Source: an uncultured Candidatus Saccharibacteria bacterium (lineage in GTDB: Bacteria; Patescibacteriota; Saccharimonadia; CAILAD01; BJGX01). From it: 64,000 nt of DNA. Below, piece by piece: positions 58,312-61,833 of this stretch (positions are counted from its first letter, which is position 1; every line of letters begins with the position of its first letter). The notes beneath the pieces were generated by a model that saw only the letters and a list, made by a program, of their open reading frames with translations, was not told the origin of the DNA and did no database searches. The translations under genes were made by a program, and so were the position numbers. Location: contig CAZSVP010000001.1 of the NCBI GenBank assembly GCA_964610335.1, positions 23,057 to 87,056 of the forward strand, read 5' to 3'.

Positions 58312-61300
58312 TTATGGCTGAGTCGTGATAGTTTGGCTACTTGTAGTTGGCTCAGGCACTTGTGGTGACTGTTGTTTTTTGAGTAGCTCTATTTCGGCTT
58401 CAAGCTTTTTAAGTCGATCTTCGTGATCTTCTACAATTCCACTAAGCTTCTTGAGCTCGGTAGAAATAGACTCAAGCTGTAATCCTTGGTCTGCTAACAG
58501 CTTGTTAACATCGTCAATCTTACCGCCTTGTTCTTGCACGGCCTTGGTAATAAGAGCTGTAACCATATCATAGTTAAAGCCCTCAATCTTGCCGTCGCGA
58601 TAGAATACTAGCCGGTCATCAACCTTTGCTGCTTCTTCCGCCACAAAACCAATTGCTGCCCTATCATCTGTATTATAGTTAAAGCTAACCGCTCGGAGCT
58701 TCATAAGATCATCCAACCCAAGGCTAAGATCCTCTATGTTATGTTTGTAGCGCTCCGATGAAACATTACAAACACCGGCTTGCTTCACTAGTAACCCGCT
58801 GGCATCAACACATACGTACTGGCTCGATGCACCACCATTGGTAACATTATTAATATCGACCGTACCACCAGCTATGGCCAACGTGTTGTTATTGGTGACA
58901 GTATACGGACCTCCTGTACCAAGTCCGATACCAACTGAGCCATCACCATCAACTGTCATGTTTTGGCCAAAAGCCGTTGATACTGATCCATTTGCAGCAT
59001 TGGTATATCCAAATGATGTTGAGTCTAAACCCGTTGCAGATGTCGACTGGCCAAAAGCGGTGCCATAGTTGTCTGCCACTGTCTGGTACCCAAAGGCTGT
59101 GGCATAGAGTCCAGCATCTGTTTGAAATCCAAAAGCGGTGCCATAATCTCCACTAGCTGTTGTTTCAGCCCCAAATGCGGTAGACCCACCACCAAGCGCA
59201 TTTGTCGTGAGCCCAAAAGCAGTAGAATTGTCGCCCGAGGCAATCGAACCTAACCCAAAAGCTGTAGAATACTCACCGCTGGCAGTTGTACTTGCTCCAA
59301 AGGCTGTAGCGCCTGTGTCTAATGCATTAGTATCAAACCCAAATGCGGTTGAGACTGCACCTGATGCCACTGAGGAGAACCCAAATGCGGTTGAGTACCC
59401 ACCACTAGCCAAAGTACCAGATCCAAAGGCAGTGTCAGCCAAGCTTGAGGCAGTTGTAGCATTCCCAAAAGCTGTAGAAAGCGTACCACTTGCAACCGTG
59501 CCAGCACCAAAGGCAGTTGATTGACCACCACTAGCAGTACTGGTGTTACCAAAGGCTGTTGAGTAAAGACCGCTGGCAGTAGTAATGGTTCCAAAAGCTG
59601 TAGCACCCTGGCCAGTGATAGTATTGGTAAACCCAAACACAGTACCATAGACTGCGCCTGCACCAATTGTATGCTGATGTCCAAATGCAACTGCACCGGT
59701 AGCACCAAGTGGAATCACGTTATTGTCACCAAAGGCAGTAGAACCGATAGCGTTGGCTTGATTGCCTTGACCAAATGCGATACTTCCTTCTTCACTTGCA
59801 GTGTTTAGCGTCCCAAAAGCAACAGCATAAAGGCCAGATGCGGTATTATTGGTGCCAAAGGCAGTCGAGTAGTTACCGCTTGCAACTGTAGTAGCACCAA
59901 ATGCCGTAGACCCAAAACCACTTGCCAATGTGTCATCACCAAAAGCGGTTGAGCGGATTCCGCTTGCCTCAGTATTAATACCAAATGCTGTAGAATCAAA
60001 ATTAGAAGCAAGCGTATCGTGGCCGAAGGCTGTGGTGTTTGAGCTTGTGGCATCACTACCATTGCCAAATGCAGTTGAGCCAGTTCCCGATGCAATAGTA
60101 TTTATACCAAACGCAACAGCACCGTCATTAGTGGCCTGTGTGGTAGCGCCAAATGCCACTGACCCAAATCCTGATGCCAGCGTTCCAACCCCAAAAGCGG
60201 TTGATTGATTGCCACTAGCGACCGTGCCCAACCCAAAGGCTGTAGCTGTATTACCCGAAGCATCAGTGCAAGCACCAAAAGCGGTTGCGCTAAATCCTGA
60301 TGCAGTTGGATTGGGCAATAATGCACTTGCACAGTCTGTAGCTGGCACTAGATAGTAACTACTACCAAATGATGTAGCAAAGTCACCACTAGCAGTTGTA
60401 GTGGCACCAAATGCAGTGCTCTCAAAGCCGCTGGCGATTGTCCCTTGACCAAAGGCAGTTGAGCCAAAGCCGCTGGCGAGAGATGCAAAACCGAATGCAG
60501 TTGATGCTTGACCATCTGCGTGCGCGATAATTCCGAAAGCAGTTGAGTTGCTCCCACTAGCTATGGAACCGCTACCAAAAGCAGTACTTTCAAATCCACT
60601 CGCTATGGTATTGTCTCCAAAAGCGATTGAATAATCGCCTATTGCCTGTGTGGTTAAACCAAATGCTGTTGAAAATTCTCCACTAGCTAATGACCCGGAT
60701 CCAAACGCAGTCGAGCCTGTTCCACTTGCTTCTGTATTGTCGCCAAGAGTTGTAGATAGTAACCCACTTGCAATTGTACTAGATCCAAGAGCGGTTGAGT
60801 TTGAACCACTAGCAATATTATTACTACCAAGAGCCATAGCATTGTCGCTCGTTGCCTGATTATGAAAGCCAAGTGCCACAGTGTAGTGATCACTGGCTAC
60901 ATTGGTGTCGCCCATTGCTAATGAGCTAAAACCGCTTGAAGTATTGAAGATCCCAAATGCCATTGCGTAGGAATTGTTAACAATATTGCCTGCGCCAATC
61001 GCAGTGGCAACCACACCAGACACGTTATTGTTGGAGCCGAAAGCAACTGATCCTAAGTTTGAAGTAATATTGTCTATTCCGCCTGCAATGCTAGATGTAC
61101 CGCTGGCAATATTGTCTTGCCCCACTGCTATTGAGTAGTATCCAACATTGGCGTCATCCCACTGAGTCCCTGTGACAGTACCGGCTCTCAATGCTGCCTT
61201 ACCTGGGTTCCAAAACATTAGAGACTTACCTGCCCCTGGAGCAGGTAGAATAGGTGCAGCCGTACCGAGAGTTCCGGTAGCAATTAGACTACCACCGGCC

Positions 61301-61833
61301 GTTGCGTCAAATGTCAGATCAAAACCATTTTGCGGCAAGGTAGTATTGTGAAGCAGCGGATTAGTACCAAACTCTAGTGTTGCACCACTTAGATATGTAC
61401 CGTTTTGAGCTGTGGTAACTCCTGGCCCGCCTGCTGGACCGGTTGCACCAGTCGCACCTTGCAAACCAGTTGCGCCCACAGGGCCGGCCGGACCGGGTAT
61501 TGGCGAGGTTGTGATTTGTTGAAGAGTTTGCTGAGTATTAGTCACAAACTGTTGCAGTTGAGAAGATAGGTTGTTGAAAGTAACTGTTTCACCAGCAATT
61601 TTTAATCCAGTCACACTGCCGTCAGCTAAGTCCGTCTTACCAACTAAGCTACTATCAGGCGAGGGACACCAGCGGTCATTGAGCCCAAGCATACGGATAT
61701 ACCATACATCAGTACAGAGGCCACGAAGTATAATCACTATCACTAAAAACAATGCAGCTAAGCCGACTAGTAGCCAGATGAGCCAGTGACTATTTGATTG
61801 ATTCTTATCTTCTGTTGACTGACTTGTCGCCAT
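58312..61833 (-). CDS. N-terminally membrane-anchored surface fibre protein: collagen-like G-X-Y segment + ~50 degenerate 14-residue (ASGxxSTAFGxxTx) YadA-head/Hep_Hag-like repeats + C-terminal phage tail-spike-type intramolecular chaperone (peptidase S74-like) domain with coiled coil
   Basis: N-terminal TM HWLIWLLVGLAALFLVIVIIL. GPAGPVGATGLQGATGATGPAGGPG (8 GXY triplets, 61420..61500). A long run of S/T/A/G-rich 14-mers. The C-terminal 149 aa begins SSERYKHNIEDLSLGLDDLMKLRAVSFNY, matching the S(D/E)RxxKxNI start of auto-cleaving endosialidase-type chaperone domains. Confidence 0.65.
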   Translation of the reverse strand: MATSQSTEDKNQSNSHWLIWLLVGLAALFLVIVIILRGLCTDVWYIRMLGLNDRWCPSPDSSLVGKTDLADGSVTGLKIAGETVTFNNLSSQLQQFVTNTQQTLQQITTSPIPGPAGPVGATGLQGATGATGPAGGPGVTTAQNGTYLSGATLEFGTNPLLHNTTLPQNGFDLTFDATAGGSLIATGTLGTAAPILPAPGAGKSLMFWNPGKAALRAGTVTGTQWDDANVGYYSIAVGQDNIASGTSSIAGGIDNITSNLGSVAFGSNNNVSGVVATAIGAGNIVNNSYAMAFGIFNTSSGFSSLAMGDTNVASDHYTVALGFHNQATSDNAMALGSNNIASGSNSTALGSSTIASGLLSTTLGDNTEASGTGSTAFGSGSLASGEFSTAFGLTTQAIGDYSIAFGDNTIASGFESTAFGSGSIASGSNSTAFGIIAHADGQASTAFGFASLASGFGSTAFGQGTIASGFESTAFGATTTASGDFATSFGSSYYLVPATDCASALLPNPTASGFSATAFGACTDASGNTATAFGLGTVASGNQSTAFGVGTLASGFGSVAFGATTQATNDGAVAFGINTIASGTGSTAFGNGSDATSSNTTAFGHDTLASNFDSTAFGINTEASGIRSTAFGDDTLASGFGSTAFGATTVASGNYSTAFGTNNTASGLYAVAFGTLNTASEEGSIAFGQGNQANAIGSTAFGDNNVIPLGATGAVAFGHQHTIGAGAVYGTVFGFTNTITGQGATAFGTITTASGLYSTAFGNTSTASGGQSTAFGAGTVASGTLSTAFGNATTASSLADTAFGSGTLASGGYSTAFGFSSVASGAVSTAFGFDTNALDTGATAFGASTTASGEYSTAFGLGSIASGDNSTAFGLTTNALGGGSTAFGAETTASGDYGTAFGFQTDAGLYATAFGYQTVADNYGTAFGQSTSATGLDSTSFGYTNAANGSVSTAFGQNMTVDGDGSVGIGLGTGGPYTVTNNNTLAIAGGTVDINNVTNGGASSQYVCVDASGLLVKQAGVCNVSSERYKHNIEDLSLGLDDLMKLRAVSFNYNTDDRAAIGFVAEEAAKVDDRLVFYRDGKIEGFNYDMVTALITKAVQEQGGKIDDVNKLLADQGLQLESISTELKKLSGIVEDHEDRLKKLEAEIELLKKQQSPQVPEPTTSSQTITTQP

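Follow-up and report, generated by a model that had tools for sequence, protein, structure and literature searches.

What is a chromosomal gene built like a phage tail fibre doing among the core genes of a bacterium that lives on other bacteria? The gene in question lies between ftsH and murJ in a stretch of 64,000 nucleotides (the window; contig CAZSVP010000001.1, positions 23,057 to 87,056) from an uncultured Candidatus Saccharibacteria bacterium. Host recognition and attachment by ultrasmall epibionts of the candidate phyla radiation (CPR)/Patescibacteria are still described as largely unknown (PMC12206443). We favour, with moderate confidence, the reading that the gene encodes a homotrimeric fibre on the Saccharibacterium surface, which is anchored by its N-terminus, matured by a C-terminal S74 domain and most likely used for adhesion or recognition. 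The combination of YadA_head repeats with S74 is already known, as is the concept of cellular S74 fibres. New here are a conserved N-terminal anchor cassette restricted to Saccharibacteria, a collagen spacer and the predicted display of YadA heads with reversed polarity, and also the conserved core-genome loci and the repertoire of paralogues that this epibiont carries in its very small genome.

Domain architecture of the fibre protein

A first-pass annotation, made from the letters of the window and a list of its open reading frames (ORFs), had proposed a giant membrane-anchored fibre of 1173 residues. The ORF is present as described, at 58312..61833 on the reverse strand (Table 1), but "giant" is an overstatement for a protein of this size.

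The C-terminus had been proposed to be a self-cleaving chaperone of the phage tail-spike type, and it does match Peptidase_S74 (PF13884; residues 1025–1076, E=8.4e-8, with 32.8 bits where the gathering score is 22). The last 149 residues open with SSERYKHNIEDL, which includes S1025, and the Ser-Lys dyad that was to be looked for is there: Ser1025 and Lys1030 (S-x4-K) occupy columns that are invariant in alignments of 28 and of 31 sequences, and the Ser and the Lys at +5 of the motif S-[SD]-x-x-x-K are invariant in 44 motif-bearing relatives. We take the corresponding dyad of the endosialidase endoNF to be Ser911/Lys916. The coiled coil expected behind the start of the domain appears in structure models as a long coiled-coil-like helix (residues 1088–1155). 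A search of PDB sequences with the C-terminus as a single sequence returned noise (the best true match, 8jov, had E=1), so a family profile was needed. Built from 28 C-termini, this profile matched the long tail fibre distal subunit (6f45, 7.7e-21), a putative tail fibre protein (8jov, 1.6e-18), the MyRF ICA domain (7dc3, 3.4e-13), a neck appendage protein (3gud, 1.5e-6) and an L-shaped tail fibre assembly (8hqz, 1.5e-6); the C-terminus also matches solved S74/ICD domains by fold. By analogy with such domains, we infer that the S74 domain is released autoproteolytically before Ser1025, in a trimerization-dependent manner. The Cys1008-Cys1022 pair of the preceding tip is conserved in relatives.

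Most of the protein consists of degenerate 14-residue repeats, about 700 residues by the first estimate and 732 (residues 234–965, ∼52 units) by ours. Their suspected likeness to YadA heads holds: Pfam YadA_head (PF05658) matches with E=4e-88 in 25 two-copy stretches, and the closest solved relatives are heads of trimeric autotransporters (BpaC, 7o23, 4e-26; YadA, 1p9h, 5e-9). Residue identity at a lag of 14 is 0.436, against a background of 0.098, and 32 in-register copies give the consensus S-T-A-F-G-x-x-T-x-A-S-G-x-x, with A3, F4, G5 and A10 at 100%. The 42-nt DNA repeats underlying the array are only 60–70% identical, which points to an old array rather than a recent amplification. Diversification by a diversity-generating retroelement was considered and rejected, since the rest of the window holds no template-like repeat of the gene and the DNA repeats inside the gene are of old date. 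The array is interrupted by two irregular insertions (residues 486–515 and 698–743). The 30-residue insertion at 486–515 (…YYLVPATDCASALLPNPTASGFSATAFGAC…) carries a Cys501/Cys522 pair, and comparable insertions with Cys residues are seen in relatives (P0002, P0008 and L003); it may form a disulfide-closed loop protruding from the shaft.

Ahead of the repeats lies an uninterrupted collagen-like G-X-Y run (residues 114–140, GPAGPVGATGLQGATGATGPAGGPGVT). The first-pass annotation had noticed this run and counted eight triplets; there are nine. Only 4e-5 such runs are expected by chance at 14.7% Gly, and in the family alignment Gly 117/120/123 are invariant and Gly 126/129/132/135 nearly so. Because the run is so short, Pfam Collagen (PF01391) stays below its threshold for this protein (12.7 bits against a cut-off of 27.2, E=0.11), and the relatives are likewise sub-threshold. 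The entry domain between the collagen and repeat segments contains a motif, G-x-G-T-R-x-x-W-x-P-x-K-x-A-F-R-A-G, that also precedes the repeat blocks of distant homologues.

The N-terminal transmembrane (TM) segment is borne out as the single hydrophobic segment of the protein: the Kyte–Doolittle 19-residue profile peaks at 3.28 within residues 17–39 and all other windows are at 1.6 or below. The segment is helical (residues 15–41) in the full-length AlphaFold2 (AF2) model, which places further helices, with low predicted local distance difference test (pLDDT) scores, at 76–81 and 91–107 of the linker. W17, W20, L36, R37, L39, C40, W44, Y45 and C56 are invariant in the N-terminal family alignments. 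The TM helix ends in ILRGLC and is followed by a 17-residue Cys-to-Cys juxtamembrane loop, then by a conserved GS[IV]TG.KIAGET[IV]T..NLS stretch and the G-X-Y triplets. We define the family by the N-terminal module W-x2-W…ILRGLC-x3-WY…C, with G-X-Y triplets behind it and an S74 domain at the C-terminus, and the window protein has every invariant residue. The N-terminal helix is presumed to stay uncleaved and to have type II topology, as first proposed. The single TM helix, the three conserved Cys pairs and the K/R residues that precede the TM helix in relatives together argue for an extracytoplasmic location of the fibre. Sortase anchoring was rejected, as there is no LPXTG-like C-terminal signal and the Pro/Thr/Ser-rich C-terminus would be released anyway.

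A conserved slot among core genes

The core-gene neighbours named at first pass are ftsH (61897–63744) and murJ (56641–58287), and the order of genes, all on one strand, is ftsH, the fibre gene, murJ, lepA, two genes for small membrane proteins, hrcA, grpE and dnaK. The FtsH of the window shares 90.7% of its residues with the FtsH of a Candidatus Saccharibacteria metagenome-assembled genome (MAG), which places the window in a Saccharibacterium. The nearest full-length relative of the fibre protein, P0001 (47% overall identity), occupies the identical slot in L001, a 337-kb contig, where Pfam identifies sortase, DivIC, TilS and FtsH upstream and MurJ, LepA, HrcA, GrpE, DnaK and DnaJ downstream. 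The ftsH–fibre junction is also found in L003, L005 and L008, and the same slot of a sixth genome, L011, holds P0012, a shorter YadA_head plus S74 protein with a different TM helix. The slot ftsH-[fibre]-murJ-lepA-hrcA-grpE-dnaK is therefore occupied in the window and in at least five further genomes (L001, L003, L005, L008 and L011). Since the FtsH proteins of these six genomes are only 76–91% identical, the fibre gene has been inherited in place.

A scan for promoters and terminators around the fibre gene gave counts no better than in shuffled sequence. The intergenic gaps are short and no convincing terminator is seen, so the gene may be co-transcribed with its envelope and housekeeping neighbours. 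In the lepA–hrcA interval (window 53314–54569, reverse strand) lie tandem genes for small proteins of 208 and 204 a.a., each with an N-terminal TM helix and a coiled coil; their Pfam matches are weak (DivIC, FlxA, 8xMP-like), and L001 has only a 78-a.a. ORF there.

A rare family with constant ends and exchangeable shafts

When 185,579 species-representative genomes were scanned with the anchor pattern, nine loci were found, at most three of them in one genome, and all belonged to Candidatus Saccharibacteria or to unclassified MAGs. A word-indexed search with the N-terminal 231 residues yielded no more than six short fragments and overlooked full-length members already known, so an exhaustive search with a hidden Markov model (HMM) was needed: a collagen-free anchor HMM run against 1.84 billion representatives gave 58 matches, ∼33 of them N-terminal. 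The anchor family is rare and restricted to Saccharibacteria, with several paralogues per genome, some in tandem. Among the full-length anchor-bearing proteins (n=25), Peptidase_S74 is found in 22, collagen in 14, YadA_head in seven and Kelch in one.

The fibre protein and its syntenic orthologues share 50–74% identity over the first 250 residues, 12–50% over the shaft and 76–98% over residues 950–1100 (tip and S74 domain). The ends thus behave as constant cassettes and the middle as an exchangeable part. Two further proteins, P0074 and P0076, are 76% identical to the window protein over ∼10% of its length, and the shared part lies at the N-terminal rather than the C-terminal end.

A second conserved fibre locus was observed in L004 (3524–11826) and L007 (3576–11433), where two to three tandem S74 fibre genes lie directly downstream of atpA-atpG-atpD. 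In each array the leading gene (788 and 781 a.a.) has S74 and is unmatched by a tblastn search with the N-terminal anchor (E≤1e-5). In a subclass of anchor-bearing proteins (L006:5974-8769, L007:5950-11433, P0074 and P0076) S74 is not terminal: behind it come ∼170 extra residues, with a sub-threshold H-type-lectin-like domain (…FYWQAF) at their end. Were S74 to cleave in these proteins, the lectin-like module would leave with the chaperone, which would be unusual among S74 proteins.

A model for fibre assembly

Collagen G-X-Y triplets, YadA heads and S74 modules are each known as obligate trimers, and three such independent modules in one chain point to a parallel homotrimer. In the model that we propose, by analogy with endosialidase, T5 pb1 and Bd3182, the signal-anchor helix (residues 17–39) would insert into the cytoplasmic membrane with its N-terminus inside and its C-terminus outside, and the remaining ∼1130 residues would be exported, presumably by Sec. 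Outside the cell S74 would trimerize first and template folding backwards through the tip, the ∼52-turn beta-roll shaft and the collagen segment. Ser1025/Lys1030 would then cut before Ser1025, freeing the 149-residue chaperone and leaving the tip (residues 966–1024), closed by the Cys1008-Cys1022 pair, as the distal end. The mature chains of 1024 residues would stay tethered by three TM helices, possibly stapled together by the Cys40/Cys56 loop. Like a phage fibre, and in the reverse of a trimeric autotransporter, the fibre would therefore be attached by its N-terminus and have its C-terminus at the far end.

From generic rises of a beta-helix (∼0.48 nm per turn) and of collagen, rather than from coordinates, we estimate ∼25 nm for the shaft, ∼8 nm for the collagen segment and ∼35–45 nm for the whole fibre. 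The "lance" of Mycosynbacter seen by electron cryotomography (cryo-ET), a tube of 70 nm x 9 nm (PMC11880426), was considered as a counterpart and set aside, its size and shape being unlike those of a beta-roll trimer ∼35–45 nm long and expected to be ∼4–5 nm wide.

The function is most likely adhesion to, or recognition of, the surface of a host bacterium, or of other surfaces. A host surface is favoured by the epibiotic lifestyle, the mosaic repertoire of several paralogues and the precedent in Bdellovibrio (see below). The window protein is most likely one of a small arsenal of paralogues that share anchor and chaperone and differ in their shafts. A bolder extension, which we hold to be possible but doubtful, is that this lineage-specific arsenal constitutes the primary determinants of host recognition in Saccharibacteria, that shaft swaps set the host range, and that the TM/Cys-loop module docks a dedicated assembly or signalling partner. 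If so, the same may perhaps apply to other CPR epibionts, in analogy with phage receptor-binding proteins and Bdellovibrio fibres.

Alternative explanations

A rival reading makes the protein a common phage-type tail fibre without a cellular role, belonging to a prophage, to the remnant of one or to a tailocin. It is invited by the classical occurrence of S74 domains in phage tail spikes and fibres, by the NCBI name of its relatives ("tail fiber domain-containing protein"), and by weak matches of the C-terminus to PHROG tail-fibre and minor-tail families and to phage S74 regions. The fibre gene also has a GC content at third codon positions somewhat below that of its neighbours (0.344 against 0.41–0.45, with similar overall GC), but this is explicable by its extreme composition and is probably an effect of the Gly/Ala/Thr/Ser-rich repeats. 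DNA of the locus has no match among 50,697 phage records. The best phage protein match shows 27.7% identity over 49% of the fibre protein (E=6e-10), against E=1e-155 for cellular relatives, and most such matches cover the S74 region only. No phage hallmark genes lie within ∼8 kb in L001 or L011, and a TM anchor whose juxtamembrane residues are invariant is no domain for attachment to a virion. Together with the inheritance of the slot in six genomes, these searches led us to reject a prophage origin, in line with the earlier remark that the gene is not obviously prophage, and we give a purely phage-derived tail fibre hardly any credence. Of the 96 phage records with weak protein matches (chiefly to the S74 region), 76 come from Streptomyces phages and two from Arthrobacter phages. 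These phages infect Actinomycetota, the phylum that hosts cultured Saccharibacteria; the bias may only mirror the heavy sequencing of actinophages.

Two other explanations keep the surface fibre or its export and differ in what they make of it. A structural or protective fibre (a spacer or "fuzzy coat"), or one for self-aggregation or biofilm adhesion, seems rather unlikely to us but is a serious rival, and several observations suit it: the gene stands among envelope and housekeeping genes and may be transcribed with them, the tip is conserved rather than variable among orthologues, YadA-type heads of trimeric autotransporters mediate autoagglutination and unspecific adhesion (PMC7568254, PMC3498257), and a "diffused outer cell wall" layer has been seen by cryo-ET on a Saccharibacterium (PMC11880426). 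However, exchangeable shafts in several paralogues, a Kelch beta-propeller in one and sub-threshold H-lectin-like ends suggest a repertoire for recognition rather than a uniform coat, and the closest characterized analogues, the Bdellovibrio fibres, serve in prey recognition and handling. It is also conceivable, although improbable, that the hydrophobic segment serves as an export signal that is cleaved off or lipid-modified, and that the fibre is released, or is attached to the wall or to a partner through its Cys-loop module. The invariant LRGLC sets a Cys exactly at the membrane exit, the module is conserved beyond the needs of a simple anchor (which suggests a processing or assembly partner), and Bdellovibrio fibres and Bacteroidota homologues have cleaved signal peptides. 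But the hydrophobic stretch of ∼23 residues has the length of a TM helix and is long for the h-region of a signal peptide, no clear small-x-small cleavage site is present, and the second invariant Cys, 16 residues on, suggests a disulfide loop instead. We rejected a lipoprotein reading of LRGLC, which does not fit the lipobox [LVI][ASTVI][GAS]C (Leu at -1, Arg at -3).

A number of points weigh against the anchored adhesin that we prefer. The N-flank of the window protein has a single Lys before the TM helix, and a signal peptidase may cut near Cys40. The full-length AF2 monomer model has a mean pLDDT of 61.9, with long stretches of low confidence. The tip is the most conserved part among orthologues (76–98%) and the shaft is the variable one; a determinant of host specificity might be expected to vary, unlike this tip. 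The pattern used did not find the anchor family in cultured representatives, and S74, tail-fibre and YadA entries are all missing from a transposon-sequencing study of cultured Saccharibacteria (Southlakia) and its supplements. The adhesion organelles demonstrated to date in cultured Saccharibacteria are type IV pili.

Features of the fibre gene

Table 1. Segments of the fibre gene and their positions in the window
Feature	Residues	Position	Strand	Basis
Whole fibre gene (1173 codons + stop)		58312..61833	(-)	ORF list; orthologues in same ftsH-murJ slot
Short polar N-terminal tail, presumed cytoplasmic	1-16	61786..61833	(-)	Sequence; relatives with K/R directly before TM helix
TM helix of conserved anchor module (WLIWLLVGLAALFLVIVIILRGL)	17-39	61717..61785	(-)	Hydropathy, AF2 helix, invariant residues, translation checked
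Juxtamembrane Cys-Cys loop (CTDVWYIRMLGLNDRWC)	40-56	61666..61716	(-)	C40, W44, Y45, C56 invariant in family alignments
Conserved stalk/linker (GSVTGxKIAGETVTxxNLSxQLQQF...), partly helical in model	57-113	61495..61665	(-)	Family alignment, AF2
Nine collagen-like G-X-Y triplets	114-140	61414..61494	(-)	Gly columns conserved across family; chance expectation 4e-5
Beta-rich entry domain before repeats (…GAGKSLMFWNPGKAALRAGTVTGTQWDDANVG)	141-233	61135..61413	(-)	AF2 strands at 152-220; motif in homologues
~52 YadA-head-type 14-residue repeats (probable left-handed beta-roll shaft)	234-965	58939..61134	(-)	Pfam, PDB, periodicity, DNA repeats
Distal tip left after predicted cleavage, with Cys1008-Cys1022 just before scissile bond	966-1024	58762..58938	(-)	Orthologue identity; Cys pair conserved
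Predicted released 149-aa S74 chaperone: core 1025-1087, helical tail 1088-1155, Pro/Thr/Ser-rich end	1025-1173	58315..58761	(-)	
SSERYK codons: Ser1025 (predicted nucleophile/cleavage site), Lys1030 (predicted general base)		58744..58761	(-)	Translation; both columns invariant in alignments

Other features of the window

Three tandem paralogous ORFs of 615, 623 and 758 a.a. lie at 16231–22648 on the reverse strand. The Pfam right-handed Beta_helix model matches the 615-a.a. ORF above its cut-off (28.8 against 25.9 bits) and the other two just below (23.6 and 23.9 bits). The ends of the 615- and 623-a.a. ORFs, upstream intergenic DNA included, are 92–95% identical and their middles 72–78% (repeats D3–D8). 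The three may represent another variable family, again of proteins that are secreted or exposed on the surface. Two other paralogous ORFs (5367–6395 and 7681–8745, both on the forward strand) share the DNA repeats D9 and D10, and the shared stretch encodes …TFDDGY…, which, going by the sequence alone, we take to be typical of NodB-type polysaccharide deacetylases. A stretch of ∼720 bp on the reverse strand (24167–24883) holds a cluster of five tRNA genes (Pro, Lys, His, Arg and Gly).

Comparison with known systems

To our knowledge, experiments on host attachment by CPR bacteria have so far pointed only to type IV pili and to a few generic adhesins, and none of the papers searched links Saccharibacteria or Patescibacteria to S74 fibres. 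The fibre gene is a good candidate for the host grip of Saccharibacteria. It defines a compact candidate class of adhesins in which a predicted phage-style C-terminal chaperone maturation is combined with a conserved N-terminal cell tether. The predicted cleavage at Ser1025 offers a simple biochemical assay, and the anchor motif a handle for searching metagenomes for the repertoire. Natural competence has been described in Saccharibacteria (PMC10633639).

The two-domain core is widespread: at least 2381 of 8000 candidates scored matched as YadA_head plus S74 relatives at E≤1e-5, and most of the 120 listed combine both domains. Such YadA_head plus Peptidase_S74 proteins, of Bacteroidota, Kapabacteria, Wallbacteria, Micavibrio and others, are uncharacterized. 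Those that we examined have ordinary cleavable MKK…AQ signal peptides, often with PF26696, and are without the Saccharibacteria anchor module and usually without a collagen segment.

With trimeric autotransporters (type Vc; YadA, BpaC, Ata and EmaA) the fibre protein shares genuine YadA_head repeats in the shaft or passenger, and from its repeats the shaft probably forms the same left-handed parallel beta-roll trimer. It differs in having no neck/stalk domains (PF05662), no outer membrane to insert into, an N-terminal anchor and reversed polarity. The first-pass annotation had seen an N-terminal TM segment in place of the C-terminal anchor of these proteins, which it held to fit a monoderm envelope, and there is indeed no match at E≤1 to YadA_anchor (PF03895), the 12-stranded beta-barrel translocator, the C-terminus being S74 plus helix. 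The NCBIfam models for trimeric autotransporter adhesins score far below their cut-offs (Ata: 127 against 2500), and without the YadA_anchor barrel the protein is not a trimeric autotransporter. If our reading of its topology is right, a beta-roll of YadA heads needs no type V autotransporter barrel for its display and can be presented in the opposite polarity.

Phage tail spikes and fibres with an ICD (K1F/endoNF, 3gw6; the GA-1 neck appendage, 3gud; T5 pb1, 4uw8/8hqz; and the S16 type, 6f45) resemble it in having S74, by profile and by fold, and the Ser/Lys dyad, and, as far as predicted for the fibre protein, in polarity and chaperone release. Phage fibres, however, sit on the virion baseplate and have a triple beta-helix or endosialidase shaft, whereas the fibre protein has a membrane anchor, a locus without phage context and a shaft of YadA heads and collagen. 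MYRF (7dc3) is a membrane-bound transcription factor of eukaryotes that carries an ICA/S74 domain. Its TM helix lies on the C-terminal side of S74, and cleavage frees the N-terminal part from the membrane; the fibre protein has its TM helix at the opposite end of the chain, the far N-terminus, and the predicted cleavage would free the chaperone only.

The nearest parallel is the mosaic adhesive trimer (MAT) family of Bdellovibrio bacteriovorus (Caulton et al. 2024), with 21 chromosomal fibre paralogues, 13 of which end in S74 with SDxxxK (PMC10769870). Self-cleavage has been demonstrated for Bd3182 and is abolished by S782A; MAT fibres are found on the surface of the predator, and one member shows specificity for surface glycans of one particular prey (PMC10769870). 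S74-terminated surface fibres are therefore an adhesin class already established by experiment in Bdellovibrio (PMC10769870). Both systems comprise chromosomal, non-phage long surface fibres in several paralogues (trimeric, as predicted here) in a bacterium living on bacteria. In both, the N-terminal module for attachment is constant, the shaft or tip is mosaic, and S74 with S-x4-K serves as chaperone-protease at the C-terminus, as predicted for the fibre protein. But MATs have a cleaved signal peptide and a conserved ∼130-a.a. beta-rich domain (in all 21) in a diderm envelope, whereas the fibre protein has a TM helix, a Cys loop, collagen triplets and a YadA-head beta-roll shaft on a monoderm-like CPR cell. 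The organisms belong to different phyla, one an epibiont and the other a periplasmic invader. A search of PDB sequences with the whole protein (E≤0.01) found only heads of the trimeric-autotransporter type and nothing labelled as a Bdellovibrio fibre. The fibre protein is unlikely to belong to the MAT superfamily by descent; it resembles the MATs in architecture and in predicted function. The fibre gene would thus extend the 2024 Bdellovibrio finding, that bacteria living on bacteria carry phage-fibre-like adhesins, to a remote monoderm-like lineage.

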